Source: Acidobacteriota bacterium (lineage in GTDB: Bacteria > Acidobacteriota > Vicinamibacteria > Vicinamibacterales > SCN-69-37). From it: DNA of 64,000 nucleotides. Where the stretch lies: the NCBI GenBank assembly GCA_039933635.1, contig JBDTNQ010000001.1:27967-91966 (forward strand). Direction: 5' to 3'. Below are positions 29,601-52,422 of the stretch, one piece after another. How positions within the stretch are numbered: the stretch's first letter is position 1; each line of letters opens with the position of its first letter. Position numbers and translations under genes: made by a program. Below the pieces are notes generated by a model. It ran no database searches. It was not told where the DNA came from and worked only from the letters and a program-made list of their open reading frames with translations.

Positions 29601-32063
29601 CTACCTGCCGCCAACGGTGACCGTGATCCCGGTTCGCAGCGTGGCGGGCAGCGCCGGGAAGCCCGCGCCGGCCTGATAGTCCTGGTTGAGCAGGTTCTCG
29701 ACGCTGAGGTACCACTTCGCGCGGGGATGAATCGTGTACGCCGCACTGAGATCGACCTTCTGAAATCCCGCGTCGAGGTTGTGGTTCGGCAGCAGCATCG
29801 ATGAACCGAAGAACTCGTCGCTCAGGAACGTGCTGTCGTCCTGTTTGCCGGAGAAGTATCCGGCGAGCACCACCTGAAACGGGCCCTGTACGAACCTGGC
29901 CATCAAACTGCCGGAATTGATGGGCCGCCGGAACGGTCGCGCGCCGACGAGCGGGGCGTACTGGCCGATCTGAATATTCGGGAACGCCGGGTTCACGGCC
30001 GGTGCGAGCACACCACCTGAAAGAGACTTCGTGACCTTTGCGTCGAGGAACGTGTACGACGCCATGAAGTTCACGTGCGACACCGATGCGTCGGCGGACA
30101 CTTCCACGCCCTGCGCGCGATATGACGATGAGTTGACATAGGCGCCGAAGCCGCTGGCATCAGCCGCCTGCTGAGAGATCGCCAGCTTCGTGAGCGCGCT
30201 GGCGCTGACGTACTCGATGAGATCCGAGAAGTTGTTGTGGAAGTAGGAGGCGCGTGCGCGCACGCGGCCACGCCACACCCCCTGTTCGACCCCGACATCA
30301 AATCCCGTGTTGCGTTCGGGGCCGATTGGATCCACACCCGCGACCGTGCCCTTGACGACGGTGAAGAGCGACGACAACTCCTGCGAGAGCGTCGGCGCCT
30401 TGATGCCCGTCCCGGCGTTGAACATCAGCTTCGTCTCACCAAGGCCGCTCGTGGCAGACGGCTTGCGCAGGTAAGCTGTCCCGGACAGACGGGGCGTGAC
30501 CGCCACACCGTACGTTTCGTTGTGGTCGACTGCAAGCCCCGCGGTCAACGCCAGGGAACGGCGGCCCACCTGAGCCTCGACAAATGCGCCGGCGTTGTTG
30601 CGCGTGGTCTTCGGCGGTGCCGTTGGATCGTCGTAGGAGGACTGCGACACACCGTACTCGTGCTCGATGCGGGCTCCTGCGGCGACGTTGAAGGCGGGCC
30701 TCAGGCGGTAGTTCGCCTGTCCAGACACGACGTGCCGTGTGGTGGTGGCATCGAACGGCTGCGGGTACACACCGCCGTAATCCAGAATCGCCCGGCCGGA
30801 CACTGAGTAGCCATTCGCGCCGGTGATCGTGACCTGGTCGCCGAGGTAGTTGCCACCGAACCCGAACGGGTCCGAATACTGGCCGGTCGGGGCCGGATTG
30901 GTCAGGTGATAGTCGCTGTGCAGCACGGCATAGCGGAGGCTCGTCTTCAACCGCGGCGAGACGCGTGTGTCCGCCTCGAGACTGAACATCTGGGCGTCCG
31001 CCTTCTTCGTGCTGTCATCCGCGACGCCGTAGAACGACGTCGCGTTCGGCAAACCGATGTGCGACGAACCGGCTCGGACCACCGCGCTGATGTCCGTCGA
31101 CGACCCGGCCGCAAATCCCAATCGGCTCGCGAACGTCCGTCGCTGATAGGCGTTGTTCGCGACGTCGTTGTCCGTGTCGAAATGCGAGAACGCGGCGAAG
31201 TAGTCCACCCGATTCGTCGCGCCGCCGACCGACAGGTCGTGGCGCTGCGTCCCCAGTGTCCCGCCGTCAATCGAGTAGGTTGCCTCCGGCACGCGCGTCC
31301 GTCCGCGCTGCGTGGTCAGGGCGACAACACCGGTCAGCGCATCGTTGCCGTAGAGCACGCTGTTCGCGTTCCGCAGGACCTCGATCCGCTCGACGCCGGT
31401 CGTGTCCACGTCGCCGAAATCAAAGACGCCGCCGATGTCGTTGGCCGGCACGCCGTCGATGAGGACCTTGTTGAACGCCGACGTGCCGCCACGGACGAAC
31501 AGCGATGCTGCGGTTCCGCGTCCGCCGACCTGCACCACGTTCACGCCGGGCACGAGCCGCAACGCTTCGGCGACGTCTGGCTTCGCGAGATCCGACAGCA
31601 GGCGTCGATCCAGCACGGTCACTGATGCCGCCACCTGTGACGCAGGCTGCGCTTCGGCCGTCGCGGTGACGACCACGACTTGAGCGACACCGATCGACAG
31701 CGTGACGTTCACCGGAACCTTCGCGCCGGTCGCAACGAAGAACGGATCGACGTGCGCCACCACGAATCCGGCGGCGTCCACTTGTAGCGCGTAGCGGCCA
31801 GCGTCGGCAGTGGCCATCGAGAAGTGTCCCTGGCCGTCGGTCCGGCCCTCCGCCACCGTCTGTCCGTCGCGCATCAGCGCGACGGTGGCGCCGGTCACCG
31901 CACCGCCAAGTTGATCGGTGACCGTGCCGGTCACCGTGCCGCTGCCATCTGCGGCCGCGTTCGCGGCGCCGACCATCGACGCGATGAAACTGAACAGGAC
32001 GACGAACGCGCGCATCGTCAGGCGACGAGCGGCGACACTACGGACGGGTGCGAACCAGGTCAT
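29601..32063 (-). CDS. TonB-dependent receptor with N-terminal CarboxypepD_reg domain, riboswitch-controlled (BtuB-like role inferred)
   Basis: ATG at 32063 with GGAGA 9 nt upstream, then a signal peptide ...MVGAANA. Plug motifs VTVLDRR..., IEVLRNANSVLYGNDALTGVV. Large beta-barrel. Confidence 0.85.
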   Translation of the reverse strand: MTWFAPVRSVAARRLTMRAFVVLFSFIASMVGAANAAADGSGTVTGTVTDQLGGAVTGATVALMRDGQTVAEGRTDGQGHFSMATADAGRYALQVDAAGFVVAHVDPFFVATGAKVPVNVTLSIGVAQVVVVTATAEAQPASQVAASVTVLDRRLLSDLAKPDVAEALRLVPGVNVVQVGGRGTAASLFVRGGTSAFNKVLIDGVPANDIGGVFDFGDVDTTGVERIEVLRNANSVLYGNDALTGVVALTTQRGRTRVPEATYSIDGGTLGTQRHDLSVGGATNRVDYFAAFSHFDTDNDVANNAYQRRTFASRLGFAAGSSTDISAVVRAGSSHIGLPNATSFYGVADDSTKKADAQMFSLEADTRVSPRLKTSLRYAVLHSDYHLTNPAPTGQYSDPFGFGGNYLGDQVTITGANGYSVSGRAILDYGGVYPQPFDATTTRHVVSGQANYRLRPAFNVAAGARIEHEYGVSQSSYDDPTAPPKTTRNNAGAFVEAQVGRRSLALTAGLAVDHNETYGVAVTPRLSGTAYLRKPSATSGLGETKLMFNAGTGIKAPTLSQELSSLFTVVKGTVAGVDPIGPERNTGFDVGVEQGVWRGRVRARASYFHNNFSDLIEYVSASALTKLAISQQAADASGFGAYVNSSSYRAQGVEVSADASVSHVNFMASYTFLDAKVTKSLSGGVLAPAVNPAFPNIQIGQYAPLVGARPFRRPINSGSLMARFVQGPFQVVLAGYFSGKQDDSTFLSDEFFGSSMLLPNHNLDAGFQKVDLSAAYTIHPRAKWYLSVENLLNQDYQAGAGFPALPATLRTGITVTVGGR

Positions 32064-32184
32064 GGGCGTCTGTCTCCACGCAGGAGCGGAAGACAAACCG
32101 CGGGAATGGGCGTACTGACGAGGCCTGGGACGGACGTCCCGACTCGCAGTCCGCTTTCTGATCGCCGCAGAAAGTCGTCCGCAG

Positions 32185-32360
32185 AACGTTCAGGTAGGTC
32201 TCCTGGCTTGGAAGGAGCGAGCGCATCTCTGCGTCGCTGGCGGCTTCACCTTCCCCGGTTTCACACCGAGTGGTTAGTTCGAAGCTGCCCCTTCACTTAC
32301 AGTGGCGGGACCGCGCCGGCTTTGCACCGGACTTCCCTGTTATGCCCTCGTGGGCACCTG
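32185..32360 (-). promoter_or_regulatory. Cobalamin (B12) riboswitch
   Basis: Minus strand reads ...AACAGGGAAGTCCGGTGCAAAGCCGGCGCGGTCCCGCCACTGT...GGTGTGAAACCGGGGAAGGTGAAGCC...AAGCCAGGAGACCTACCTG. The B12 box corresponds to plus-strand 32193..32208. It lies directly 5' of the TonB receptor gene. Confidence 0.85.
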
Positions 32361-32440
32361 AACACACAAAGCCTAGCACAGCGCCAGGCCGCGGAGCCCG
32401 GGTCTCTCGCGAAGGCGCCGGCTCCATGAGGTGCATCCGC

Positions 32441-33427
32441 TCAGAGAGCCAGCCAAAGAAGGACAACGCCTGCCGCGACAAGCCCCGAGGCAACGACCAC
32501 ACGGAGAGCGCGAAGGACGTCTGCGTGATCGCCTGCTGGTGGATCGAGCGGATCGCCAATCCAGACGGCCGTCACTTGCGCGCCCTTCATCCAGATCGGC
32601 CCGACGAGCCGACGTTGAATGGCTCCGGCCGTCGCGGCTTCGCTCCAGCCGGAGTTGGGCCCAGGCAGGACGGAGTGCTGGCGGAGGCCGCACGCGAACG
32701 CCTTGCGCGCGGATGCACCAGGAACGACGGCCGCGATGGCGGCAATCAGCAGCCATGTCAGTCGCGCGGGCACGAAGTTCAGTACGTCATCGAGACGCGC
32801 ACCGCACCATCCGAAGTCCAAGTAGCGCGGTGTCTTGTAGCCGACCATCGAGTCCATCGTGCTCACGATCTTGAACAGCAACAGGCCGGGCAGGCCGCCA
32901 AGGGCGTAGAAGAACAGCGGGCTCGTGAATCCGTCGGTCAGGTTTTCACTGAGGCTTTCGATCGAAGCGCGCCGGCATGCGGCCACGTCCATACGGTCCG
33001 TGTCACGTCCGACGAGCTGTGCGATCGCCACGCGCGCGCCGGCCTCGTTGCCTCGTGATGCCGCCGCGTCAACCCGTCTCACATGAAGAACGAGATCGCC
33101 CAGCGCCAGAAGGCTGTAGACCAGGGCCGCGTGAACGATCCACGCGGGCCACGCTCCGATCGATGTGACGGCCCAGCCAAGAATCGCCAGGACCCCGCCC
33201 CACGTGACGACGAGCAGCAGGAACAGTGCGATCCCGCCGCCCCGCCCGTCGAGTCCCCACGCGCGGAGCCGCGTCTCGAATGCCGTGAGCGTGGCGCCAA
33301 CGAGGCGTACCGGATGCCAGCGATATTCGGGGTCGCCAAAGACGAAGTCGAGCGCCACAGCCAGCGCAAGGGCGGACGCGCTGCCGGCCAGCCAGGCGAT
33401 CAGTTCGCGCGCCACTTCTCGCGCCAC
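32441..33427 (-). CDS. cbiB: Adenosylcobinamide-phosphate synthase
   Basis: LALAVALDFVFGDPEYRWHPVRLVG is the CobD/CbiB signature. GTG at 33427 is chosen as the start, with low certainty. Confidence 0.85.
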   Translation of the reverse strand: MAREVARELIAWLAGSASALALAVALDFVFGDPEYRWHPVRLVGATLTAFETRLRAWGLDGRGGGIALFLLLVVTWGGVLAILGWAVTSIGAWPAWIVHAALVYSLLALGDLVLHVRRVDAAASRGNEAGARVAIAQLVGRDTDRMDVAACRRASIESLSENLTDGFTSPLFFYALGGLPGLLLFKIVSTMDSMVGYKTPRYLDFGWCGARLDDVLNFVPARLTWLLIAAIAAVVPGASARKAFACGLRQHSVLPGPNSGWSEAATAGAIQRRLVGPIWMKGAQVTAVWIGDPLDPPAGDHADVLRALRVVVASGLVAAGVVLLWLAL

Positions 33428-34533
33428 CCAAGAGCGACGGCCGCAAGCACCAGCGTGCGTGGATCGGAGGCGCCGACCTCGTGCAATCGCGCGCGGAACT
33501 CGGGCCACCGCTCGGGCTGGGCCGCGAGGGCTACCGCGAGCGTCGCGGCCTGTCCGACGACCGCGTCGGGAATGACGGACGCCGGCAGTGTTTCATGCCG
33601 CGCGCGATCGAGCACCGCCGCCATCGCGTGGGCCGCAGCGCCAACGAGCGGCTCGTAGAAGGCGCTCTTGCTATTGCGCCGGAGCAGTTGCAGCGGCTCG
33701 GCTTCAAGGTGGGCACCGAGGTCGTCGAAGATCGACGCCTCCTTCACGCCGTACCGCCCGAGCGCGTGGAACAAGCCCCTCGTGTAGCTTGGCTCGAGGC
33801 CATTCTGCCACCGCAACGCTTCCATGGTCGCTCGTCTCACCGCGAGCCCGACGATCTCGCCGAACTTCATGTGAGGACTGGCCGACGTCAGGGGAAAATC
33901 ACCACTGAGGGGCGCGGCCAGGCAGAACTGATCCGTGCCGGTGCCGGTTGCGAGATCCTTGGAGGCGCAGCTTGGAACGGCCAGGCGTTGCAGCGCCGCC
34001 GACTTCCCTTCCGTCATGGTCACAATCGTGCGGGTCAGCGCGGACACTGTCACGGGCACGTCGACCAGGACCATGGTGTTGATGGTGCCCACGATCGGCG
34101 GCACCTTGACCACACCGTCGCGTGTCTCGCGCCATGACGCCGGATCGCCGGCACACGTCGCGTTGGTCTGCACGCCGCCCGTCACGACGGCGGTGACGAT
34201 GACGTCGCCGTCCTGCTCGGACGCGAGGGCGGTGTAGTTCATGTTGGCCGCCGTTCCCATGACGGCCGCTTCGTCTGGCGGCACGTCGACCTCGGCGCAG
34301 ACCTCATCGTGGTAGGCGTCCTGCCCTCCCGCCGTCACCGCGTGCGCACGCGCCTCGTGTCCCGATCCCTCGCAACTCTGATGATTGATGAGGTAGCGGA
34401 CGCGATCGGTTTGCCCGCCGTTCTTCGTGGAGGTGCTGAACACGGTGTGCGGCCCGTGCAGTTCGGCGACCACGAACCGTCCCCGGCGCCGGACGATGGC
34501 CGATGCGAGGCGCGCGAGGACTTCCCAGTGCAT
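33400..34533 (-). CDS. cbiZ: Adenosylcobinamide amidohydrolase (CbiZ-like) with a ~130-aa C-terminal extension
   Basis: ATG at 34533 (M94 of the ORF; the upstream part of the ORF runs through the tRNA gene). The CbiZ-like core includes TAVVTGGV...GTINTMVLVD...TMTEGKSAAL...ATGTGTDQ. Confidence 0.7.
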   Translation of the reverse strand: MHWEVLARLASAIVRRRGRFVVAELHGPHTVFSTSTKNGGQTDRVRYLINHQSCEGSGHEARAHAVTAGGQDAYHDEVCAEVDVPPDEAAVMGTAANMNYTALASEQDGDVIVTAVVTGGVQTNATCAGDPASWRETRDGVVKVPPIVGTINTMVLVDVPVTVSALTRTIVTMTEGKSAALQRLAVPSCASKDLATGTGTDQFCLAAPLSGDFPLTSASPHMKFGEIVGLAVRRATMEALRWQNGLEPSYTRGLFHALGRYGVKEASIFDDLGAHLEAEPLQLLRRNSKSAFYEPLVGAAAHAMAAVLDRARHETLPASVIPDAVVGQAATLAVALAAQPERWPEFRARLHEVGASDPRTLVLAAVALGWREKWRAN

Positions 34534-34653: not shown

Positions 34654-34729
34654 GCCGAGGTAGCTCAGTTGGTAGAGCATACGACTGAAAATCGTAGTGT
34701 CGCCAGTTCGATTCTGGCCCTCGGCACCA
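34654..34729 (+). tRNA. tRNA-Phe (GAA)
   Basis: GCCGAGGTAGCTCAGTTGGTAGAGCATACGACTGAAAATCGTAGTGTCGCCAGTTCGATTCTGGCCCTCGGCACCA. Folds as a cloverleaf with anticodon loop CTGAAAA and encoded CCA. Confidence 0.95.
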
Positions 34730-34739
34730 CTCACTAAAC
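34684..34739 (+). repeat. attL: 56-bp direct repeat within and after tRNA-Phe
   Basis: actgaaaatcgtagtgtcgccagttcgattctggccctcggcaccactcactaaac, identical to 52367..52422. Confidence 0.9.
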
Positions 34740-35145: not shown

Positions 35146-35406
35146 TTACGACGGCATCGCGACGAGCCGCCACGCGTCGAGTTGTCGGATGAACTCAAGG
35201 ACGTCCTTTTCTAGTTCGTCCCTCGCCATATCGGGATACCTGGCCTGAACCGCCGCCGTGGCTTCGGCGGTCGATCGCCCGACGGCAATGGCTTCACAGA
35301 TCAGCGACCCGACCCTGTCGAGACCGTACATCTCTCCGGTGTCTGTATTCAGCAGCACACCGCCGTCTTCACGTCCCGCAAACTTGATGTTGGCTGAGAA
35401 GGTCAT
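35146..35406 (-). CDS. PqqD-family RiPP recognition element (lasso peptide B1)
   Basis: ATG at 35406 (ATGA overlap with the methyltransferase stop). GGVLLNTDTGEMYGLDRVGSLICEAI...EKDVLEFIRQL is PqqD-like. Confidence 0.8.
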   Translation of the reverse strand: MTFSANIKFAGREDGGVLLNTDTGEMYGLDRVGSLICEAIAVGRSTAEATAAVQARYPDMARDELEKDVLEFIRQLDAWRLVAMPS

Positions 35407-36182
35407 CGCGTACTCCTCGTCTTCGTAGCGTCTGTCTGCGCCCACATGATGGTGACGTCCTCGATCGTGTAGAGGTCGCTGGCGCCGAGCGGCCGCAGGC
35501 CATGACGCAGCGCGGCCGCGAACTGGCGCACACGCTCACCTAGTGTGTCAGCGGCGCAGTCCGGCATCGCTAGCCATAGCCCGACCGCCTGGCTGATCGT
35601 CAGTTGACGTCGCACGCGGAGCCGGCGGCAGCGCACGCGGCCGACCATGGCCGCCAGTAACTCGGCGGTGGTCCGCCGATCCGCATCCGGTGCCGGCGCA
35701 AATTCCGGAGACGGCGTCACGTACGGCCGGCTAATCTCCCGCGCCACGCGCATCCACGCCGACCATGTAATCATGCTGTCGAGGACGACGAGGCGGCCCT
35801 GGGCTCCGAGCAAAGACCGTGCTTCGGCAATCGACATCGGCCGATTCGTCCAGTGTACCGACTTCGGGAAGACGACAGCCGCGCAGGACCCGCCGATGAT
35901 CTCGCGTGCCCGCTCGGCGTGACCGACCTCGAATCTCGCCTTGACGCCTGCCCGCGCCCCCGTTCGACGCGCTTCCTCGACGAAGCTCCGCGCCGGATCG
36001 AGGCCGATGACTTCGTGGCCGCGGCGCGCCATCGCGAGGCTGCACTGCCCGGCGCCGCAGCCGATGTCGGCAATCCGGCTTCCTCCGGGAAGGTCGCCGA
36101 CGACCCAGTCGATGACGTCAGTCGTGTAGGGGTTGCTACACCTCGCCGCGTGCCACGCTGCCGGTCGTCCGGGCCTGGTCAT
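35403..36182 (-). CDS. Class I SAM-dependent methyltransferase
   Basis: Motif I IADIGCGAGQCSLAMARRGHEVIGLD. ATGA overlaps at both ends. Confidence 0.8.
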   Translation of the reverse strand: MTRPGRPAAWHAARCSNPYTTDVIDWVVGDLPGGSRIADIGCGAGQCSLAMARRGHEVIGLDPARSFVEEARRTGARAGVKARFEVGHAERAREIIGGSCAAVVFPKSVHWTNRPMSIAEARSLLGAQGRLVVLDSMITWSAWMRVAREISRPYVTPSPEFAPAPDADRRTTAELLAAMVGRVRCRRLRVRRQLTISQAVGLWLAMPDCAADTLGERVRQFAAALRHGLRPLGASDLYTIEDVTIMWAQTDATKTRSTR

Positions 36183-37681
36183 CGCTGAGGGGGCGGGAGA
36201 GGGCCAATGTCCGGCACTGGATCGGTGCCCCGCTTTTCAGCGGTCACGGCACAGTCAGACGCGAGTGGGCTCGCAACTTCTTGGTGTCCCCGCCCTCCGT
36301 TAGCGCATTCGAGCCGTGCCCGCGTCGGGAAGTGTGCAAAGGCCCTGGCGAGATCGATTCGTGTCGGCTCAGCGCGCTGCCCGGACGCGAGCTGCTCCCA
36401 TTGCCAGCGCCACACCTCCTCAAACTTGGGAACGATCACGTTCCAATCGAAATGCGCGATCGCACGGGAACGGCCGGCCTCGCCCATGCGGCGGCGGCAC
36501 TGTTCGTCTAGGAGCAACTGTCGTGTGGCAGCCATGAACGCCTCAAAATCGACGGAAGTCGCCTGGCTTAGCGCGCGTCTCGTCACCGCCTTGCTCTGCC
36601 ACGCCGCCCGTCGAGAGACGTCCGCCACGTGCGGCTGGCACCAGTGTGTTGGAATCAGCAAGCCCGTCTGTCCGTGCGAAACAATGTCGCGATATCCGCT
36701 CCAGTCCGACGCGACGACGGGCAGGCCGCAGGACATGGCCTCGAGCAGTGCGATGCCGAACGTCTCCTGGATGTTGTCCGAGGGCGAGACGCACACATCC
36801 CCGGCCGAGTAGATGTAGGTCTTCAAGTAGGGCGGGAAGTTCGGGACGATCGTGCAGGCAGTGCCCACGCCGGCCGTTGCAGCGGCCGTGCGCAACCGGT
36901 CCGCCCAGATGTTGTCGCAGTCCTGCCCGGCCACGAGCAGGTGGACGTCAATGCCGTCCTGTCGCAGCCTGCTGACGAGGCGGATCAAGACCGACAGGTC
37001 CGCCTTGTCGTCCCACGTCAACCGGCCGACATACACGAGGACGATCGCGTCGTCTGGGACCCGCAGCAACTGACGGGAGTGGCGCCGATCACGCGGGATC
37101 AACGCCTGCGTGTCGATGCCGATCGGGATTGTGTGAATAGCGGGTCCGTCCCCAGCTTGGCGGCGTCGGCCGAATCCGCGCGCCGCCAGACTGTCGGTGA
37201 CATCAGCCAGCAAGGTCTCGACCGTCGTCCGCCCGGCGACGCTGCTGATCACGATGGCGTCAAAAGCGTGGCCGAAGAGCAGCGTGTCAAGATACACGTC
37301 GAGGGACAGGTCGACGGTCGTAACGCACGCGCAGATCGAGAGACGGGCCCCGGTGCTCGCACGCAGCCGCCCTAACCCGCCGAACGCCAAGTGCTGATGA
37401 CAGAAGAGATAGTCGTGTCTAAGGATCTCAGCCGGCAGATCAGCGGCCGACCGTCGTCGCACGGTGGAGGGAATGCCTGTCGTCGTTCGATGCTGGCCGT
37501 CTTCGAAGTGGAACACGGCATAGCCGTCGGAACGCCGGGCGACCTGCTCGAGCAGGTCGTGTGCGAAGACCCATGTCCCGTTGCGATCGGCGGTCGACGT
37601 GGCGTGATGGTGGCGGACGTAAGGATCGATCCACCCGAGTCGCCGGCGCGGTTCCGTATCCCGACTAGTGACGTCGTTCAT
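36179..37681 (-). CDS. GT-B glycosyltransferase (Glycos_transf_1, GT4-like), 500 aa
   Basis: C-terminal E-x7-E region ETFGIALLEAMSCGLPVVASDWSGYRDIV..GQTGLL. 17-nt overlap with the cyclase gene. Confidence 0.8.
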   Translation of the reverse strand: MNDVTSRDTEPRRRLGWIDPYVRHHHATSTADRNGTWVFAHDLLEQVARRSDGYAVFHFEDGQHRTTTGIPSTVRRRSAADLPAEILRHDYLFCHQHLAFGGLGRLRASTGARLSICACVTTVDLSLDVYLDTLLFGHAFDAIVISSVAGRTTVETLLADVTDSLAARGFGRRRQAGDGPAIHTIPIGIDTQALIPRDRRHSRQLLRVPDDAIVLVYVGRLTWDDKADLSVLIRLVSRLRQDGIDVHLLVAGQDCDNIWADRLRTAAATAGVGTACTIVPNFPPYLKTYIYSAGDVCVSPSDNIQETFGIALLEAMSCGLPVVASDWSGYRDIVSHGQTGLLIPTHWCQPHVADVSRRAAWQSKAVTRRALSQATSVDFEAFMAATRQLLLDEQCRRRMGEAGRSRAIAHFDWNVIVPKFEEVWRWQWEQLASGQRAEPTRIDLARAFAHFPTRARLECANGGRGHQEVASPLASDCAVTAEKRGTDPVPDIGPLPPPQR

Positions 37682-39452
37682 GGCGCCACGGGTGCCGTTG
37701 CAAGTCTTTCAGCCAGCGCTCGACCGCGATCAGACGCAGCACAGAGAATGCGTCCGTTCCGATTCCCATCCGCACCTGCTCAAGGGCGTCGCGCGTCCTG
37801 CGATAGTCGACGTAACCTTCCCTCACGACGTTCGCGCGCGGAGAAATTAGCTGCAGCAGTGGCGTCCACTCCCGAGTCAGGGCGCGACAGACGTACCCGT
37901 CACCGCTTACTTTCGTGGTGCGCGTGGCGACAGCGGACGGCAGCAGTCGGCCGATACTAGCCCGCTGCAACGTGCGTGTCTGGCCGGCCGTGACCTTCCT
38001 GTCAAACGGCATCGCGAGCATGAACTGAACGACGCGGCGATCCAGGAAAGGGCTACAAACGTCTATGTCAGCGGTCGTACGGAACGAGTGATAAGCGCTC
38101 ACCCGCATGGCCTGCGCGATGTGCCGTCTGGACACGCGCCAGGCGTTGCTGGCATGTCGATCGGCCTCGCCGTCACGGACGGACTGGCGCGAAGTGTGCG
38201 AATCGGGCGTCAGCCAGCCTGGCAGCGGAAGACGGACCCGCTTCCACGATTTCACCAGGTCCCGATGCAGCACCTGCCAGTACGTTAGGCCTGTCGCAGC
38301 GGCTATGGCCCGGGCCGTTCGATGGCAGACGCTCAGTTGGCCGCGCCGGAGCTCGTCGACAAGGTGTGGGGCCGTGGACAGACTCCACATGACGGCATCC
38401 CCGCCATGACCTCGCAGCAGACAAGCGCCGCCTTCGCCCTTTAATAGTCGGGACACATGAAGTGTGCGGCCGAGGTTCGGAATGGGACGCGGAAAGGGCG
38501 CGGTCTCGTCAAACCCGAAGGCCGTATAGTCTCGCTCGCCGATCTGCTTATTCACGACCGATGTCGCGCGGACAACGGCCTCCATGTAAGGGCGTTCATC
38601 GTCGGGATGTCCGGCATCGTGCACATACGAAAGCGTCTTCGGCGTACCGAGGGCCTGTTCTTGGGCAATGCGAGCGGCAATGCAGACGACTGAGGAGGAA
38701 TCGAGGCCGCCGCTCAGTTCCGCCCAAGTGCCGGGACGAAGACGGCATCGCACAGCCTCACGGAGCCGGTCCCACAGAGCCTCTTCGTAGTCGGCGCCTC
38801 GTCGAAACTCGACGCGATCCTCGGGAGAGGGCAACCATCCGATCGAGCGGCGAATTCCCGATGAGGTGAATTGCAGAACGTACCCGGGCGGCACGACGGA
38901 CACGTCGAGATACGGCGATTGATCCTGGGCGGGATCGTCGGCGATGAAGCGATAGACGTAGGCGCGGTCCACCGCGGGCGCCGCCTCCGTCGTGAAGAAC
39001 GAGCGCAGATCGGAAGACCACTCGATGGTGTCGCCGCGCCGCTTGAAGTAAAGGGGGCGCGCCCCGGCGAAGTCTCTGGCAAGGATCATGGTCCGGGCGT
39101 CCCGGTGCCACAGCGCGACGGCCCAGTCACCAATCAAGCGCTCGAAGGCCTCCGCCCCCCAGGTGACGTAAGCGGCAGTCACGACCGCTTCGTCGTCGCA
39201 TTGCCGCGAGTCGAGCCCCAAGCGGGCGACCAGTGACTCCTTGTTGTCTAGCCGTCCGTCCCACATGATCGATGGCATCCCGGTGCCATCGACGGGTGCG
39301 CTCCACCCCGAAACGGCAGACGCTGTCGGACGTGGAGGCTGACCCGCGCCAAGCCGGATTCTGGCATCGGTGGCCCGGCCATTGCTGAAATCGGCCCAGC
39401 CAGCCACACGCGGGCTCCATGCGTCGAACACCGAGCGCGACACGGCGTTCAT
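37665..39452 (-). CDS. Asparagine-synthetase-like lasso peptide cyclase (C protein)
   Basis: 595 aa. PP-loop ELSGGLDSSSV; N-terminal AsnB-like domain (IGDWAVALW...ILARDFAGARPLYF). ATGA overlap with B2. Confidence 0.85.
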   Translation of the reverse strand: MNAVSRSVFDAWSPRVAGWADFSNGRATDARIRLGAGQPPRPTASAVSGWSAPVDGTGMPSIMWDGRLDNKESLVARLGLDSRQCDDEAVVTAAYVTWGAEAFERLIGDWAVALWHRDARTMILARDFAGARPLYFKRRGDTIEWSSDLRSFFTTEAAPAVDRAYVYRFIADDPAQDQSPYLDVSVVPPGYVLQFTSSGIRRSIGWLPSPEDRVEFRRGADYEEALWDRLREAVRCRLRPGTWAELSGGLDSSSVVCIAARIAQEQALGTPKTLSYVHDAGHPDDERPYMEAVVRATSVVNKQIGERDYTAFGFDETAPFPRPIPNLGRTLHVSRLLKGEGGACLLRGHGGDAVMWSLSTAPHLVDELRRGQLSVCHRTARAIAAATGLTYWQVLHRDLVKSWKRVRLPLPGWLTPDSHTSRQSVRDGEADRHASNAWRVSRRHIAQAMRVSAYHSFRTTADIDVCSPFLDRRVVQFMLAMPFDRKVTAGQTRTLQRASIGRLLPSAVATRTTKVSGDGYVCRALTREWTPLLQLISPRANVVREGYVDYRRTRDALEQVRMGIGTDAFSVLRLIAVERWLKDLQRHPWRHERRH

Positions 39453-39868
39453 ACCTGATCTATGACGGTGAACTGCGTCAGGTCCTCAGCGAAACCAAAG
39501 ACCTGCCGATCGCTCACTACCCAGGCATGCGCAAAGAAAGGCGCCACTCTGACGCCGATCTTCATCTGCGCAGGCACCGAGTGCCGCCGGAGAATCCTGG
39601 TGAAGACGGCGGCGCGACCCAGACAGCGGACGTTCCGCGGCAGGCAGTCCAGAGTCCGCTCAATGACGGCCACGTGGATCTTGAGATCTCGCTGGGGTGC
39701 CCCCGACGCAACTGCCGTGTCCCGCACCCACGCGCGAACGCCTCCGAATCCCCGGAACCGCAGGATCGCCAAGTACGCGCAGGCCTCGCCCACGGCAAGC
39801 ACGACATATTGCAGTTTGGAGGCGGTCGACACCACGTGTTTCCCCTGCGTTCCCGAAGTGACAGCCAT
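39449..39868 (-). CDS. Transglutaminase-like leader peptidase (lasso peptide B2)
   Basis: ATG at 39868 (M82 of the ORF). CLPRNVRCLGRAAVFTRILRRHSVPAQMKIGV....FFAHAWVVSD matches the Cys/His/Asp core of the PF13471-type B2 family. Confidence 0.8.
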   Translation of the reverse strand: MAVTSGTQGKHVVSTASKLQYVVLAVGEACAYLAILRFRGFGGVRAWVRDTAVASGAPQRDLKIHVAVIERTLDCLPRNVRCLGRAAVFTRILRRHSVPAQMKIGVRVAPFFAHAWVVSDRQVFGFAEDLTQFTVIDQV

Positions 39869-39900
39869 CCTGGCGAGCGGGTCGCCAGGATGGCTGGCGT

Positions 39901-40008
39901 CTACACCATGCGCGTCTCGTTGTCCGCGTCGAGGATGCTCGAACCTCCGCCGAGGACGAGTACAGCCGCATTGCCCAGACGAACGATCGTTGGCTTCACG
40001 TAAACCAT
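39901..40008 (-). CDS. Candidate lasso peptide precursor (35 aa)
   Basis: ATG at 40008 is preceded by GGGAGGTGG at 6 nt. The sequence is MVYVKPTIVRLGNAAVLVLGGGSSILDADNETRMV. The leader fits Y-x2-P-x-(L/I)-x3-G-x5-(T)-x. The core starts with Gly and has Asp at core position 8. The gene lies 32 nt upstream of B2. Confidence 0.65.
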   Translation of the reverse strand: MVYVKPTIVRLGNAAVLVLGGGSSILDADNETRMV

Positions 40009-40493
40009 AGCGTGCCACCTCCCTTCGAATCGCAATATGCCCGATACCATCGCTCCGCCTGTCACCGCGCCGGCTGCGCCAGGACGGTCGCGTTCGCGCG
40101 CGTGAGAACAAAGTCGGCAGAGATGATTGGCTCGCACAGTGTCTGGCTGCTTTTGAACAATGTCAAGACCAAAATCGACTCAGATCACATTACTACTGTG
40201 TACGACTAAGTATGAATATGCGACTCTATACGACAGTATGCGACGGGCAACGACACGAGCGACAGGAAGTACTTAGACTCCGGTTGACGGATTGCCAGAA
40301 GCCTATTGGCGAGGCACCCGAAGGCATGGCAGAACAAGTTCGCCGGCCGTTGCGAACGTAAAGAACCAGAAAGATTCTATCTACAAACTGCTACTGCTCG
40401 AAGAATCCGCTTGACACACAATGGATGACGCAAGACCATCGCCAGAAGAACAAAGCTCTTCGTGCTAGCTGGAACGCAAGCGGTTCGCCGTTC

Positions 40494-42392
40494 ATGACTA
40501 CACATCGTCTCGACGTGCCGGCGCTCGTCGCCACTCTTCTTGCCCTCGCGGCGCCCCTTGGCCTCCGCGCCTCCGTGGCCCCATCGGACCGTCCACAGGA
40601 CGCTCCCACCTTTCGCACCACAACCAACATCCTCCAGCTCGACGTCACCGTACTCGGCAAGGATAATCGTCCCATCTCCAATCTGACGGCGGCCGATTTC
40701 GTTGTCACCGAAGACCGCACGCCACGGTCCGTCGTTGCCGTCAACTGGGTCGACGTTCCGCGACCCGATCCGGCTCGCGCGTCCTGGGTGCGCGATGTGG
40801 CGCCCGACACCATGTCCAGCCTCGCCCCATTTGGCCGCCTCCTCGTGTTCGTGATCGACGATGGCACGACCGGCTGGAATCCGGCTGTCGGCAGAGATCC
40901 GTGGATCCTGCAGACTGGCAAGAGGATTGTCCGCGATGTAATCGACGGCCTGGGGCCTGCAGATCTGGGGGCGGTGGTGTTCACGTATCTCGGGCGCAAC
41001 CAGGAATTCACAAGGGATCACGGTAAGCTGCTCAAGGCCGTTGACTCCTACGTCCCGCAGGCGGGCGCGGGCAATGCGCTCAATGTGCCACTGGGATGCT
41101 CGTTCACCGGCCGGTACGGCTGCACCTTCGAGACGCTCCAACACGTTGTCGACGCGCTGCCGTCGTCTCCGCCCGCGCGCAAGCTGATCGTCTTCATCAG
41201 TCAGGGCTTCAACCTCGTGCCGGATTTTTCGAACGACGCATTGGCGCGGTTGACGCCCGAGGGCCTGGGCCAACCGAGTGCACCGGCCGCAGCCGCCTTC
41301 TACCGGCAGCTCCAGGCAACGAACACAACGATCTACGCATTCAGTCCCGGAGGCCTTCAAACGATCGGCGGTGAGAACGAGCACGCGCTGCGGGACCTGG
41401 CCGAGAGCACGGGCGGCCGGGCGTTCTCCGGCAACGAGCCGTGGACCGGCGTACCCGCCATGCTCGAGGAAGAGAGCGGGTACTACGTCATTGGCGTGCA
41501 GACGGACGCACGCGACGGCAAGTTCCATCTTCTGCACGTGGAGGTGACCCAGCCCGATGCCGTCGTCAGAGCGCGCAGAGGCTACGTGGCGCCCGCCCCC
41601 GCGGAATCTTCGCGTGCGACGACCCAGGTGGCCGATCTGGACGGGGCGGTGAGTGGGAGCCTGCCAGTGGGCGGCCGCGAGGTCGTCGCCGCAGCCGTGA
41701 CCTTCGCCGACCCGGTGTCCGCCGATGGCATCGTCCGGCTGCTTGCGCTGGCCCGTACCGATCCTGGCGTACGGGGGCCGCTTCGCGTGAAGATCGCGGC
41801 ATTCGATTCCACCTGGGAGCCACGTGCGGGCCAGACGGCGACGATCGCGGTGCCGGAGGGCGCCGCCCGGCAGCTTGTGACGACGGAGGTCCGCCTGCGC
41901 CCGGGCCGGTACCAGCTCCGGCTCGCTGCCGAACAGAACGGACGCCTCGGCGCAGTCTTCGTCGACGCCGAGATTCCGGACTTCTCACGGAACGCGCTCT
42001 CGACATCCACGCTGATTCTTCTGCCTGAGCTTCCCGGCGGATCGTCACCGGCGGCATCGTTCGGCGCGATCGTCCGACGGGCCGAACTCGGGCGGACATT
42101 CAGACGGACGGACGCTGTTGTCCCGTTTCTCGAGATTTATCAGAAGGGTCGGCCGGCCACCGTGAACGTCGACTTCGTCATTGTTGACGACGCCGGTCGG
42201 GTGCGGGTGACAGCGCGCGAGACCATTGCGCCAGACGCGTTCACGTCCGCTCCTCGATGGCGACTGAGCCGCGCGCGAGTCGGGCATCCGCTCGACCTTC
42301 GTGGTCTGCCCGCCGGCGAATACCTGCTCACCGCGGCAGTAACATCTGGGCCTTCAACATCCGAGCAGAAGATTCGTCTTCAGGTGCAATAA
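40494..42392 (+). CDS. VWA-domain protein, 'VWFA-related acidobacterial domain' type
   Basis: ATG at 40494 gives a signal peptide. FRTTTNILQLDVTVLGKDNRPISNLTAADFVVTEDRTPRSV resembles the TIGR03436-type N-terminus, followed by a VWA region. Confidence 0.75.
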   Translation: MTTHRLDVPALVATLLALAAPLGLRASVAPSDRPQDAPTFRTTTNILQLDVTVLGKDNRPISNLTAADFVVTEDRTPRSVVAVNWVDVPRPDPARASWVRDVAPDTMSSLAPFGRLLVFVIDDGTTGWNPAVGRDPWILQTGKRIVRDVIDGLGPADLGAVVFTYLGRNQEFTRDHGKLLKAVDSYVPQAGAGNALNVPLGCSFTGRYGCTFETLQHVVDALPSSPPARKLIVFISQGFNLVPDFSNDALARLTPEGLGQPSAPAAAAFYRQLQATNTTIYAFSPGGLQTIGGENEHALRDLAESTGGRAFSGNEPWTGVPAMLEEESGYYVIGVQTDARDGKFHLLHVEVTQPDAVVRARRGYVAPAPAESSRATTQVADLDGAVSGSLPVGGREVVAAAVTFADPVSADGIVRLLALARTDPGVRGPLRVKIAAFDSTWEPRAGQTATIAVPEGAARQLVTTEVRLRPGRYQLRLAAEQNGRLGAVFVDAEIPDFSRNALSTSTLILLPELPGGSSPAASFGAIVRRAELGRTFRRTDAVVPFLEIYQKGRPATVNVDFVIVDDAGRVRVTARETIAPDAFTSAPRWRLSRARVGHPLDLRGLPAGEYLLTAAVTSGPSTSEQKIRLQVQ

Positions 42393-43288
42393 TGACGTTT
42401 GTCACGATCGCGACGAGACGCTATCTACCGATGGCGCTGCAGCTCGCGGCTACCATTCGTGCCGCCGACCGTTCGGCTGAGATCTGGCTGTGGCTGGCCG
42501 AACCGCCCCAGGCTTGTTGCGTGGTGCCGGAAGGGCTCTTCGACCGGGTCCTCGTGGCGGAGGAATGGATCGGCACGGCGATGCGGGAGTTCGTCCGGTC
42601 CCATGACGAACTGGAAGCGTGTTGCGGGTTGAAGCCCACCGTGCTGCTAACGACCATGGACCTCAAGCGTGAGGAGCGCCAGTTCGTCCTCATCGATGGC
42701 GATGCCTGGGTCTTTGGCCCCTTCGACGAGGTCGCGCGGGCCCTCCAGACGTCAGACGTCGTCCTGACGCCGCACCTGCTCGAGGCCGAGGCGACACGGG
42801 CGGCAAGCGATGATCTAAGAAAGAGCCTGCGATGGGGCGTCTGTAATCTTGGCTTCATCGCGGTCCGGCAGGGAGCGCGCGGCCGCGAAGTCCTGGAGTG
42901 GTGGCGTGAGCGCTGCCTGGATGCGTGTACGGTCGATCCGGCGTCGGGCCTCTTTCTGGATCAGAAGTGGATGGACCTCGCGCTGGCGTTCGACGGTGTC
43001 GCCGCCTTGCGCCATCCTGGCTACAACGTCAATCCGACGAACGCGGCGGCCCGGGGCGTGTCGAGTGCGGGGGGCAGACTGGTCGCTGGAGCAGATCGCC
43101 TGCCCGTTCGGTTCGTCCACTTCTGCGGATTTGGTCGAAGCGTACGTCCGACGACAATCTTCGACGCGTGCAACGAAGGCTCGCCTCTCAGGCGCCTCGT
43201 CGAGGAGTACGACGCCGTGCTGCAGAAGATGGATTTCGCGGTGACTAGGACACGGCCGTGGGGCTACGCGAGTGCCCTCAACGGGTGA
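42392..43288 (+). CDS. Putative GT-A-fold nucleotide-sugar transferase
   Basis: The ATG overlaps the TAA of the VWA gene. DxD-like FVLIDGDAWVF; FLDQKWMDL motif. The family assignment is tentative. Confidence 0.45.
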   Translation: MTFVTIATRRYLPMALQLAATIRAADRSAEIWLWLAEPPQACCVVPEGLFDRVLVAEEWIGTAMREFVRSHDELEACCGLKPTVLLTTMDLKREERQFVLIDGDAWVFGPFDEVARALQTSDVVLTPHLLEAEATRAASDDLRKSLRWGVCNLGFIAVRQGARGREVLEWWRERCLDACTVDPASGLFLDQKWMDLALAFDGVAALRHPGYNVNPTNAAARGVSSAGGRLVAGADRLPVRFVHFCGFGRSVRPTTIFDACNEGSPLRRLVEEYDAVLQKMDFAVTRTRPWGYASALNG

Positions 43289-45317
43289 GTACGTGAGCTC
43301 GCGACGTCGCGCCCGGGATGCTCGACCGCCGCGCCGACGCCGGCGCCTCGCCGTCGTGACCCGCGAATGGCCGGGCGTCACGCCGGTGTCGACGATTGGA
43401 TACGTTCAGGCCGCGCTGGCGCATGATCGCGCCCGACGCGGCGCGGATGTCACGGTCCTGCTCGTGTCCGAGGGCACCGTGCTACAGCAGCCAGCCACTG
43501 TCCACCTGAACGACCGGTTGCATTTGGTTCATTTTTCGATCCCCAATCGCCCGTCCTTCAGCGGCCCATCCGGTGCCCATCACATCTACCAGCGGCTGAT
43601 CGGTGACCCGTGGGATGAGCTGTTCTTCGTCGAGCGGGGTGGTGATGCATATTGTGTCGTTCAGGCGAAATACCTCGGATTGGGATTTCGAAACTCGCGC
43701 GTCACGGTGGCTGTTCATGGTCCGACGGTCTGGTCCGAACTGAGTGCGGGCCGCCCCATCGCCGACAACACGCTGCTCGAGCGCGATTGGCTCGAGCGAC
43801 AGAGCGTTGCGCTGGCCGATCGCGTCGTGCTTCCATCCACCGAACATCGCCGCTGGTTGAGACAGTGGGAATGGACGTCGAAAGGCACTGTAGAGATCGA
43901 CGCCGGCTGGCTGGAATCCGCAGGAAGCCATAGCTCCGCTGAACACCGGCCCCATGTGCATCCTGTGTTCGGCATCGCGTTCATCGTGTCGGCCGGGCAT
44001 TGGGCGTCGGCTGTCGCTTTGCGACGTGCCCTGATTCAGGTGACGCGCTCAGGAGTGATCACGCCCGATCGACTCGCGATCGAGTTTCGACAGACGGAAT
44101 TCTCGGCTCCGGTGGCGAACGAGTGGATGCGGTTGGTCCGGCAGTCGTGTCCTGATATCCAGCAGGTCGATGCCCAGAGCTCGGCGGGTGGCGATCCGGC
44201 ATGGCTTCCGTGTGTCATGCCGTCGTCGACGTTCTATCCTCACGAGACCCTACAGCTTCTCAGAACCGGCCGACCGTTCGTCGTCGTCTCGCCAGAGCCA
44301 ATGCGGTCTATCCGCCCGTCTGATCGGGCAGCCGCCGCGGCCGCGTTCGATGCGGATTCAATCGCGAGCCTGTGTTGCAGAGTGCTGGCGGGAGGGGTTC
44401 GTAGTCCGTATCCGGCGACGCCGAACCTGCATACCGCCAGGCTCCGGGGTAGGGTGACGACGAGGCCGCGGGCGCTCGAACGCAACGATCCGCGCTGGAC
44501 GCCGAAGGTGTCCGTGATCATCGGAACGCTCAACCGACCGCGCGCGCTTCTTCAAGCCGTCGACTCGATTCGCGCGCAGACTTACCCCGAGATCGAGCTG
44601 ATCGTGATCGACGACGGCAGCGACGCGGGCGATGCCATGGCCGTACTCGATGCGCTGGCCGGTGATTTCGAGGCGCGTACGTGGAAGATCCTGCGACGTC
44701 AGCCCGGTGCCTCCGGGCTTGCGCGCAACATGGCGGCCGCCCTCGCAACCGGCGAATGGCTGTTGTTCATGGACGATGATAACGTCGCGAAGCCTGAGGA
44801 GGTGGACGTGTTCGTGCGCGCCGCAGTTCACTCAGGAGCTGACATCCTGGTTTGTGGCTACGACGCCTTCGAGGGGCAGGGATCCGCTCCGCCGGCGGTG
44901 CCCATTGTGCAGCGGTGGATGCCCTTCGGCGCCGCGCTACCGATCGCTCTCCTTGAGAACCGGGTCGGCGATGCCAACATGTGCGTGCGGCGCGCGGTGT
45001 TCACGAAGCTCGGCGGCTTTGCCCACCCGCCAGGGTCCGGCATGCTCGAGGATTGGGGCTTTCTGCTGAAAGCCATGGCCGCTGGCGTATCGGTTGAAGT
45101 CGTGCCTGAGTGTCTCTACTTCTACCGCCGGGTAGCTCGACCTGAACGCTCGCTAGTACGCGACAACGTGGGACTGCTGGCAGCGATCGGTCCCCTGATC
45201 TCGACGCTTCGGCCCGCAGAGAGGCTGCTGGCCATCTACGCCGCCGCGCTGCCTCGCGCGGTTCAGCGCAGGCTCGAAGCGTCGACGCAACAGCGTCCGC
45301 CCGACTTCCAGGGGTGA
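43272..45317 (+). CDS. Two-domain glycosyltransferase: N-terminal GT-B-like, C-terminal GT2
   Basis: GT2 motifs VSVIIGTLNRP...IELIVIDDGSD...LLFMDDDN. The N-terminal half is GT4-like (RLAVVTREWPGVTPVSTIGY). Confidence 0.7.
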   Translation: MPSTGEYVSSRRRARDARPPRRRRRLAVVTREWPGVTPVSTIGYVQAALAHDRARRGADVTVLLVSEGTVLQQPATVHLNDRLHLVHFSIPNRPSFSGPSGAHHIYQRLIGDPWDELFFVERGGDAYCVVQAKYLGLGFRNSRVTVAVHGPTVWSELSAGRPIADNTLLERDWLERQSVALADRVVLPSTEHRRWLRQWEWTSKGTVEIDAGWLESAGSHSSAEHRPHVHPVFGIAFIVSAGHWASAVALRRALIQVTRSGVITPDRLAIEFRQTEFSAPVANEWMRLVRQSCPDIQQVDAQSSAGGDPAWLPCVMPSSTFYPHETLQLLRTGRPFVVVSPEPMRSIRPSDRAAAAAAFDADSIASLCCRVLAGGVRSPYPATPNLHTARLRGRVTTRPRALERNDPRWTPKVSVIIGTLNRPRALLQAVDSIRAQTYPEIELIVIDDGSDAGDAMAVLDALAGDFEARTWKILRRQPGASGLARNMAAALATGEWLLFMDDDNVAKPEEVDVFVRAAVHSGADILVCGYDAFEGQGSAPPAVPIVQRWMPFGAALPIALLENRVGDANMCVRRAVFTKLGGFAHPPGSGMLEDWGFLLKAMAAGVSVEVVPECLYFYRRVARPERSLVRDNVGLLAAIGPLISTLRPAERLLAIYAAALPRAVQRRLEASTQQRPPDFQG

Positions 45318-45320
45318 CCC

Positions 45321-46841: not shown

Positions 46842-46847
46842 ACTCCG

Positions 46848-49472: not shown

Positions 49473-49744
49473 AGACGATGTAATCTCTTCCCTCGACGAG
49501 AACAACTGACGTACTGCGTTGAAGCTGGCAGTATCGGCGTCGTAAATCACACTGTCAAGGTGTCACTTGCGTTTCACGGCGTCTTCTGTGCCCGAAGCGA
49601 ACAAAGAGTCCTACTATGCGCGCAAGAGTCTCTTGCCTGGCCGCCCTATTAGGACGTTGTCAGATCCGCAGGGTAACTTGCAGGCGTTCTTGGATGCGCT
49701 CGAAATAGGGCGGTTGTCAAGCAAACGGGATCGCCGCGAAGCGT

Positions 49745-52366: not shown

Positions 52367-52422
52367 ACTGAAAATCGTAGTGTCGCCAGTTCGATTCTGG
52401 CCCTCGGCACCACTCACTAAAC
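52367..52422 (+). repeat. attR: 56-bp copy of the tRNA-Phe 3' portion
   Basis: Identical to 34684..34739. It lacks the 5' half of the tRNA, so it is not a functional tRNA. Confidence 0.9.

Follow-up and report, generated by a model that had tools for sequence, protein, structure and literature searches.

The value of lasso peptides lies in their very stable scaffold and in their antibiotic and receptor-binding activities, and tailoring enzymes account for much of their chemical diversity. The locus described here raises the question of whether a glycosyltransferase (GT) and a methyltransferase (MT), encoded within a lasso peptide operon, act on the peptide itself. The operon belongs to an uncultured Vicinamibacterales (Acidobacteriota) bacterium and occupies positions 35146-40008, minus strand, of the window, that is, of the whole 64,000-nucleotide stretch that was analysed. 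The host was placed in this order by its Ffh protein, which reaches 82% identity with those of Vicinamibacterales metagenome-assembled genomes. Its six genes are ordered precursor, leader peptidase B2, cyclase C, GT, MT and B1, the last being a RiPP recognition element (RRE; RiPP, ribosomally synthesised and post-translationally modified peptide). It is likely, in our view, although far from assured, that the operon works, was acquired horizontally and directs the synthesis of a lasso peptide with two tailoring modifications; its product would then probably be a new decorated member of the class. The parts of the operon are the following.

40009-40424, no strand assigned: 416-bp divergent intergenic region 5' of the precursor, presumed promoter site (by position only)
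39901-40008, minus strand: precursor gene, 35 aa (sequence and ribosome-binding site)
39449-39868, minus strand: B2 leader peptidase, transglutaminase-like Cys protease, 139 aa (PF13471, NF033537)
37665-39452, minus strand: lasso cyclase C, Asn-synthetase-like, 595 aa (PF00733, PF13537, PF13522)
36179-37681, minus strand: GT4-family glycosyltransferase, GT-B, retaining type, 500 aa (PF00534, EX7E, predicted fold)
35403-36182, minus strand: class I S-adenosylmethionine (SAM)-dependent methyltransferase, 259 aa (PF13649, PF08241, PF13847)
35146-35406, minus strand: B1/RRE, PqqD-like leader-binding protein, 86 aa (PF05402)

All six open reading frames (ORFs) are open over these coordinates. Overlaps of the ATGA type, read straight from the sequence, join B2 to C, GT to MT and MT to RRE, and the C stop codon (37665-37667) together with the GT start codon (ATG, 37679-37681) gives a 17-nt overlap; the sequence holds no alternative GT start 3' of that ATG. 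The RRE starts at the ATG at 35406, with the ribosome-binding site GAGGAG upstream. The start taken for B2 is an ATG (MAVTSG..., 139 aa), the longest open frame, from a TTG at 40111, being rejected since it would overlap the precursor gene. The upstream cyclase ATG gives the ATGA overlap with B2, and the true start of that gene is uncertain between this ATG and Met59. Upstream of the operon a scan for sigma-70 consensus sequences, not tuned to Acidobacteria, returned no site, and terminator-like hairpins occur at chance level. An earlier note on this DNA had described the same six-gene minus-strand unit, with three ATGA overlaps and one of 17 nt, and direct reading of the frames and junctions agrees with it. 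That note also drew attention to the terminal position of the RRE, which is real but carries little weight, as gene order varies freely among homologous clusters.

Is the lasso machinery complete? B2 matches PF13471 with 61.8 bits (cut-off 26) and NF033537 with 61.2 bits (cut-off 33), and the catalytic residues Cys82 and His114 do not vary when it is aligned with five homologues. The cyclase matches PF00733 with 89.7 bits (cut-off 21) and contains the SGGLDSS PP-loop; its closest relatives, 36-40% identical, are found in ordinary PqqD-B2-C(-ABC) clusters of soil metagenomes. The RRE matches PF05402 with 53.3 bits (cut-off 23.4). Intact catalytic motifs and matches above the Pfam cut-offs thus describe a machinery that is predicted to be complete. 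The assignments of B2, C and RRE in the earlier note hold in hidden Markov model searches of both Pfam and NCBIfam, as do its calls of a Glycos_transf_1-type GT (PF00534 and a GT-B predicted fold) and of a class I SAM enzyme (PF13649 and motif I).

The precursor (MVYVKPTIVRLGNAAVLVLGGGSSILDADNETRMV) is preceded by the ribosome-binding site GGGAGG, 7 nt 5' of its ATG. Its leader, MVYVKPTIVRLGNAAVLVL, carries Tyr at position -17, Pro at -14, Ile at -12 and Val at -2, and the predicted core, GGGSSILDADNETRMV, ends in Val. The three features looked for in a lasso precursor, namely a YxxPxL-type leader motif, one of Gly, Ala, Ser or Cys at core position 1 (here Gly1) and an acidic residue at positions 7-9 (here Asp8), are all present. 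Nine precursors, that of the window and eight others, align in register, with Gly1, Asp8 and Asp10 invariant and with Tyr, Pro and a hydrophobic residue at 17, 14 and 12 positions before Gly1 in every one; this spacing we take to be the leader motif recognised by lasso RREs. The family leader can be written YxxPx[IL]...G.A..L[IV]L and the family core G-x-G-x3-[LMH]-D-[AG]-D-x-[EQ]-[TG]. Without gaps, the window core aligns with those of the loci L087 (GSGSWELDADNETRLV), L086 (GGGEYQLDADNQTHLD), L089 (GNQKIQLDADNQTPLS), L252 (GTGAWKHDADEETFLE), L253 (GNMSKCCDADGETPLH) and L001 (GSGFLSMDGDGQGHVEGGE), and the whole window precursor is 60% identical to that of L087. Since the leader motif stands in register and Gly1, Asp8 and Asp10 are invariant, the most likely product would be a Gly1-Asp8 macrolactam with an 8-residue tail.

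The GT matches PF00534 with 95.9 bits, and its E306-x7-E314 motif is invariant in 13 homologues, with which it also shares further invariant residues. Its AlphaFold model (pLDDT 79.6, pTM 0.79) has the two-Rossmann-domain GT-B fold, for which Foldseek returned MshA, SPS (sucrose-phosphate synthase), GlgM, BshA and PimA with E values from 1e-20 to 1e-15. The modelled fold and the motif identify it as a predicted GT4-type, retaining GT-B enzyme. A weak match to TIGR02918 was also recorded (E 0.0014), and the Pfam search found neither a GT2 nor a polysaccharide deacetylase domain in it. A role as a defence component, suggested by a Pfam match to PF20706 ('GT4-conflict'), was rejected, there being no PADLOC defence-system match. 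The L001, L169, L016 and P0003 homologues share a C-terminal motif, W..L.K.G, that is missing in the window GT.

Relatives of the GT are spread over many phyla; the closest one (P0002, 44% identity) is found in a C-precursor-GT-MacB order. When 149 GT sequences from the fetched loci were grouped by average linkage, with a distance cut-off of 0.62 (about 38% identity), the window GT fell with those of L001, L089 and L169, all four of them lasso-linked. A second clade has 11 lasso-linked members out of 15 and no negative member with full flanks. The nearest neighbour of a lasso-linked GT was itself lasso-linked in 14 of 17 cases, a value reached by none of 2000 label permutations, and the GT clades of Phenylobacterium, cyanobacteria and Planctomycetes contain no lasso-linked members. 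Some relatives that are not lasso-linked stand beside natural-product genes: L098 by a C39-peptidase ABC (ATP-binding cassette) bacteriocin exporter, L007 and L106 by genes for polyketide synthases (PKS) or non-ribosomal peptide synthetases (NRPS), and L003 by TldD/PmbA, methyltransferases and an ABC transporter. The wider family may be one of general GTs for peptides and natural products.

The MT is far less widely distributed. It matches PF13649 with 49.7 bits and carries the motif I DIGCGAG, and its Pfam matches are the generic Methyltransf_25/11/31/12/23 and MTS models; neither PCMT nor O-methyltransferase family 2 was matched at E<=0.01 in the Pfam search, and a PADLOC match to mad2 covers the generic MT core only. 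A word-indexed search of 5.8 billion proteins gave two relatives, both weak, and in an exhaustive comparison with 1.84 billion representative proteins the sole match below 1e-30 was the protein itself. The best match other than itself, P0244 (30% identity, E 2e-22), lies on the contig that holds L087 and L169, and a further relative lies directly 3' of the cyclase in L252. His110 is invariant and Arg114 nearly invariant between the MT and its few relatives. The JGI sample 3300050821 contains both the second-closest GT (P0003, 40%) and the second-closest MT (P0245, 31%), on contigs of 2.6 and 1.3 kb, which hints at another cluster with GT and MT that was fragmented in assembly.

Which other clusters carry these enzymes bears directly on the question asked. 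The related clusters are uncharacterised metagenomic ones of Acidobacteriota: L087 together with L169, L089, L086, L001 and L252. They share with the window the precursor family, the cyclase clade (36-39%), the GT clade (38-44%) and the MT family (27-29%), and differ from it in gene order and accessory genes, most of them having ABC or MacB exporters. The loci L087 and L169 form a single 19.3-kb contig (logan SRR15359034_24550), which encodes the precursor most like that of the window, with the same DADNETR core, as well as B2, C, a GT (L169, 39% identity) and P0244, the GT being convergent with the MT. No RRE was detected on this contig; it also encodes an ABC exporter, a B12-binding radical SAM enzyme, a GT2-like protein, a small GT1, a MacB permease and a VWFA protein. 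The order is C-precursor-GT-ABC in L089 and C-precursor-GT-exporter in L001 (JGI 3300019360). Neither B2 nor RRE lies within the 17.5 kb of L001; for L001 and L089 the leader peptidase and the RRE must be encoded elsewhere or be dispensable. L086 reads A-RRE-B2-C; the ORF directly 3' of C is truncated where the contig stops and has a weak similarity to the N-terminus of the GT (28% over 92 aa, E 2e-4). In L252 the MT is present and the GT absent. Among the related clusters, both enzymes are found only in the window and in L087+L169, and the joining of all six genes in one coupled chain on a tRNA island is peculiar to the window. Of the 80 genome loci closest by cyclase, the long GT occurs in none and the MT in one: species-representative genomes rarely contain the GT/MT-tailored variant, which turns up mainly on metagenome contigs.

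A separate GT-linked family is found in Terriglobales and soil metagenomes (L016, 5800-14200; L137, L141, L150, L152, L156, L158 and L168). Clusters of the L016 type have an ABC exporter, RRE, B2, GT, a second PqqD-like gene and two tandem Asn-synthetase-like cyclases. Their precursors, of the form MKYE[TN]PELTALTPAI[ND]AIQ..., end in GY[QAE]DWE(S), and their core positions 7-9 are free of acidic residues; these clusters may make something other than a standard lasso.

Two observations tie the GT and MT to the peptide. The essential RRE gene comes last in the chain, joined by an ATGA overlap to the MT and through it to the GT, which rules out a transcription unit of their own for the tailoring genes. 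Moreover, members of both enzyme clades accompany one precursor family although the gene order changes from cluster to cluster; the GT and MT are therefore best explained as dedicated lasso tailoring genes and not as passengers, and we infer that the peptide is their substrate.

The pathway would then proceed as follows. The PqqD-like RRE would bind the 35-aa precursor through its YxxPxI leader motif, and the B2 cysteine protease would cleave between Leu19 and Gly20. The cyclase would adenylate the Asp8 side chain and join it to the Gly1 amine, giving an 8-residue macrolactam presumably threaded by the tail ADNETRMV. The dedicated retaining GT4 enzyme would transfer a sugar from a nucleoside diphosphate (NDP)-sugar donor, and the dedicated class I SAM MT would add a methyl group; the order of these steps is itself provisional. 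The calculated mass of the dehydrated core is 1602.73 Da. In monoisotopic terms the linear core comes to 1620.741 and the dehydrated lasso to 1602.731 ([M+2H]2+ 802.373); with modifications the lasso would have 1616.746 (+Me), 1764.784 (+Hex), 1805.810 (+HexNAc), 1778.799 (+Hex+Me) or 1819.826 (+HexNAc+Me).

The sites of modification were approached through covariation in seven related clusters of one precursor family. Asn11, within an N-[EQ]-T motif, occurs in four of the five GT-linked clusters and in neither of the two that have no GT, and Thr13 is present with or without a GT. The motif LDADN[EQ]T is common to three of the four precursors of the group formed by the GTs of the window, L001, L089 and L169, L001 retaining only G1, D8, D10 and Q12. 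Glu12 occurs in all three MT-linked clusters, and Gln12 in L089 and L001, where no MT was seen, and in the contig-cut L086. Strict rules by which Asn11 would imply the GT and Glu12 the MT were discarded, the former being broken by L001 and the latter by L253. As leads from a weak covariation, the candidate sites would be Asn11 or Thr13 for the sugar and the Glu12 carboxylate for the methyl group, with the C-terminus or the sugar as alternative methyl acceptors. On the strength of the co-occurrence of Asn11 with the GT and of Glu12 with the MT, a bolder and rather improbable version can be put forward, in which the GT would be an Asn N-glycosyltransferase acting on Asn11 of a D-N-[EQ]-T sequon and the MT would esterify Glu12, making it Gln-like. 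If true, N-glycosylation would be without precedent among lasso peptides, and so would Asn glycosylation by an enzyme of the GT4 family.

How did the operon reach this genome? The elements that bear on this, and the remaining genes around the operon, are these.

34654-34729, plus strand: tRNA-Phe(GAA), integration target (ARAGORN, Rfam)
34684-34739, plus strand: attL, left copy of a 56-nt direct repeat formed by the tRNA 3' half and 10 nt (repeat search)
52367-52422, plus strand: attR, right copy of the 56-nt direct repeat (repeat search)
51002-52180, minus strand: P4-type tyrosine integrase with Arm-DNA-binding domain (PF00589, PF13356, PF22022)
40425-42392, plus strand: acidobacterial VWFA-domain secreted protein, divergent from the precursor (TIGR03436, 105.5 bits)
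42257-49550, no strand assigned: other island cargo (Pfam, NCBIfam), with no link to the lasso operon shown

The two copies of the repeat are identical and lie 17,683 bp apart, a 24-mer search gave 2 matches for 0.00 expected, and the integrase adjoins the second copy. The tRNA-Phe, the perfect repeat and the integrase together identify the operon as cargo of a 17.7-kb integrative island, so that the earlier claim of a tRNA-Phe island is strengthened by a 56-nt repeat of the tRNA 3' half and a tyrosine integrase at its far copy. Such a location shows that clusters of this kind move between soil Acidobacteriota as ready-made units. GC content at third codon positions is 0.73-0.80 in the operon genes, 0.79 in the integrase and 0.74-0.90 in flanking core genes, mostly 0.80-0.90, with CobD at 0.74. 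A search of relatives for the empty site, anchored on CbiZ, found the CbiZ-CobD synteny kept and contigs that lack the tRNA or end at it. The contigs of L333 and L335 (Vicinamibacterales) end exactly at a tRNA-Phe 96% identical to that of the window, about 3 kb from CbiZ, which would fit a region at this tRNA that is variable or repeated in related genomes.

Left of the island lies a B12 uptake/salvage locus (29601-34500), in which a cobalamin riboswitch (32176-32376, minus strand, 106 bits) stands upstream of a TonB-dependent receptor (29601-32096, minus strand), and CobD (32441-33508) and CbiZ (33400-34500) lie between the riboswitch and the tRNA-Phe. The cargo at 42257-46841 (plus strand) comprises a 343-aa protein with no family match, a 681-aa GT2-domain protein, whose GT2 domain is C-terminal (residues 411-620) and whose first 400 residues have no assignment, and a GMC oxidoreductase. 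The region 46848-49550 encodes a 900-aa CarboxypepD_reg/outer-membrane protein (OMP) beta-barrel protein, and between its gene and the integrase a 137-aa ORF (49614-50027, minus strand) looks by eye like a C-terminal fragment of an insertion sequence (IS)-type transposase. Two of these proteins were considered as pathway members and set aside. The VWFA protein has a family counterpart in the L169 cluster, but at only 23% identity, and TIGR03436 proteins are common in Acidobacteria; the TonB-like OMP (46848-49550) has one near L086, the identities in the VWFA and OMP comparisons being only 23-24%.

Several observations weigh against a functional operon for a doubly tailored lasso peptide. The best NCBIfam models of the cyclase and the RRE are the lasso cyclase NF033535 (207.7 bits) and the lasso PqqD chaperones (NF033530, 44.8 bits), and both scores lie below the curated cut-offs, 525 and 70, respectively. 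Cyclase residues 1-58 align to no homologue, and the database gene call starts at Met59 (537 aa). The usual Thr at leader position -2 is absent, all relatives having Val or Ile; Thr is common there but not universal, and its absence is not taken as excluding lasso membership. The gene assignments of the earlier note are borne out with two blemishes, the unaligned first 58 residues of the cyclase and Val at -2 of the leader. The tail of the GT (about residues 450-500, 36179-36330) is disordered and lacks the C-terminal motif of its homologues, and a large number of GTs in the wider family have no lasso link. The covariation sample is small and has exceptions, L253 with Glu12 and no MT within 9 kb and L001 with a GT and no Asn11; there is no residue with an acceptor hydroxyl that all the GT-linked precursors conserve. 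The island ORFs scanned gave no ABC_tran, ABC_membrane, FtsX or peptidase S9 match, as the earlier note had anticipated in reporting neither ABC exporter nor isopeptidase; the window operon, in this unlike most of the homologous clusters, has neither an ABC or MacB exporter nor an immunity gene. Since the operon encodes no exporter, export must use a transporter encoded elsewhere. Finally, the chemistry of the product is deduced wholly from genes.

The first rival explanation accepts the lasso core as working and holds that the GT and MT serve another substrate, an envelope glycan or a small molecule, and were brought into the operon by accident of island assembly. The wider GT family lies mostly away from lasso genes, beside MacB permeases, TPR proteins and NRPS/PKS genes; the best structural matches of the GT are GT4 enzymes with small-molecule or glycan acceptors, and the island holds other glycan-type genes, the GT2 and the GMC oxidoreductase. 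It is difficult, however, to reconcile an accidental insertion with an RRE that is translationally coupled 3' of both genes, with the recurrence of these specific GT and MT clades in related lasso clusters of different gene order, and with an MT that is almost without relatives outside lasso clusters, and we regard the explanation as unlikely.

A second one takes the peptide as the substrate of the GT but assigns to glycosylation a protective or pro-drug function: the GT would mask the peptide in the producer, the sugar being removed or irrelevant outside, and would in this way offset the lack of an exporter or immunity gene. Resistance to other antibiotics is known to rest on inactivating glycosylation, as with the macrolide glycosyltransferases, and an operon with neither exporter nor immunity gene fits it. 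Yet homologous clusters with ABC or MacB exporters also keep the GT, and no glycosidase is encoded nearby, so that we would give this explanation only a small chance. The same small chance is left to a third, in which the operon, silent or in decay, is carried along by the island and yields no product in this host. It would suit a mobile island with a transposase remnant, the missing exporter, the failure of the promoter scan to find a sigma-70-like site, and the atypical cyclase N-terminus and GT C-terminus; against decay, the six frames are open, the catalytic motifs intact and the overlaps and ribosome-binding sites preserved, and the promoter scan was not tuned to Acidobacteria. The weakest supposes a cyclised product other than the classical threaded Gly1-Asp8 lasso, closed at Asp10 or left as an unthreaded branched-cyclic peptide, and is very improbable: Asp10 is as invariant as Asp8 and the GT-linked L016-type clusters, with two cyclases and core positions 7-9 lacking acidic residues, depart from the textbook pattern, but a ring closed at position 8 falls within the known sizes of 7-9 residues and the window has one cyclase only. 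A functional operon with dedicated GT and MT therefore remains the preferred reading.

It remains to place this operon among known systems. We know of no characterised lasso peptide from Acidobacteriota, and our literature search found neither acidobacterial lasso clusters of the window type nor a GT4-type enzyme acting on a lasso peptide. The co-occurrence of GTs with lasso clusters was reportedly observed in the RODEO work of Tietz (2017), as described in papers that cite it. Among GT4 enzymes there is a precedent for polypeptide substrates in the GtfA-type O-GlcNAc transferases, which glycosylate Ser/Thr of serine-rich repeat adhesins; their similarity to the window GT is distant and their partner protein and substrates differ, and the analogy is one of possible working only. 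GT genes near lasso clusters have also been noted in silico in Firmicutes (PMC7533575).

Methyltransferases inside lasso clusters are of two described kinds. In the lassomycin type (LasF, StspM) a SAM-dependent methyltransferase is likewise part of the cluster, and StspM, which was modelled on mitomycin 7-O-methyltransferase, acts on the C-terminal carboxylate of the precursor (PMC9266682). The window MT is set apart from it by that description, matching generic models only and belonging to a sparse family of its own. Cellulonodin-2 and lihuanodin involve O-methyltransferases of the protein L-isoaspartyl methyltransferase (PIMT) type, with aspartimide formation and a conserved Asp6 (PMC9266682). 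These enzymes act on an acidic side chain of the mature lasso, and the window family has a conserved tail Asp and Glu; in contrast, the window MT has no PIMT (PCMT) family match in Pfam or NCBIfam.

For glycosylation only two routes have been described, neither of them of GT4 type. The earlier note had held that known lasso tailoring does not include GT4-like glycosylation, which stands in so far as no such case was found, but glycosylation itself is known, through PsmN of pseudomycoidin and IgtG of the davasins. In pseudomycoidin, from Bacillus pseudomycoides, hexoses are placed on the phosphate of the C-terminal Ser and need the nucleotidyltransferase PsmN (PMC11912497, PMC9266682). The window product would share with it a glycosylated lasso, as predicted here, but the pseudomycoidin route uses the PsmK kinase and the nucleotidyltransferase homologue PsmN and has no GT gene, whereas Pfam and NCBIfam found neither an HPr-kinase-like kinase nor a nucleotidyltransferase in the six window genes, and the window core ends in Val. 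For the davasins of Streptomyces davaonensis the enzyme is IgtG, described as a bifunctional polysaccharide deacetylase/GT2-family protein and studied in a microsome assay; it works iteratively on the mature lasso, a single Ser of which receives up to four sugars (PMC11912497). This is a close parallel, a lasso cluster with one glycosyltransferase that puts hexose on the peptide, and no genuine GT other than IgtG has a demonstrated role in a lasso pathway. The window GT is set apart from it by the description of IgtG, being a GT4-type GT-B enzyme as against a deacetylase/GT2 protein; it also comes from a different phylum and is paired with an MT.

The comparison thus defines a small family of clusters with a conserved core motif and two apparently lasso-dedicated clades, one of GTs and one of MTs, represented in the window by a compact 4.9-kb six-gene unit that could be expressed as it stands. 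If the two enzymes act on the peptide, they would be new tools for lasso diversification, and one would have to ask how a sugar is attached to a threaded structure or ahead of its formation. With the glycosylation of lasso peptides already established by pseudomycoidin and the davasins, what is new in this operon is the GT clade and the MT family, both uncharacterised, and the context in which they are found.

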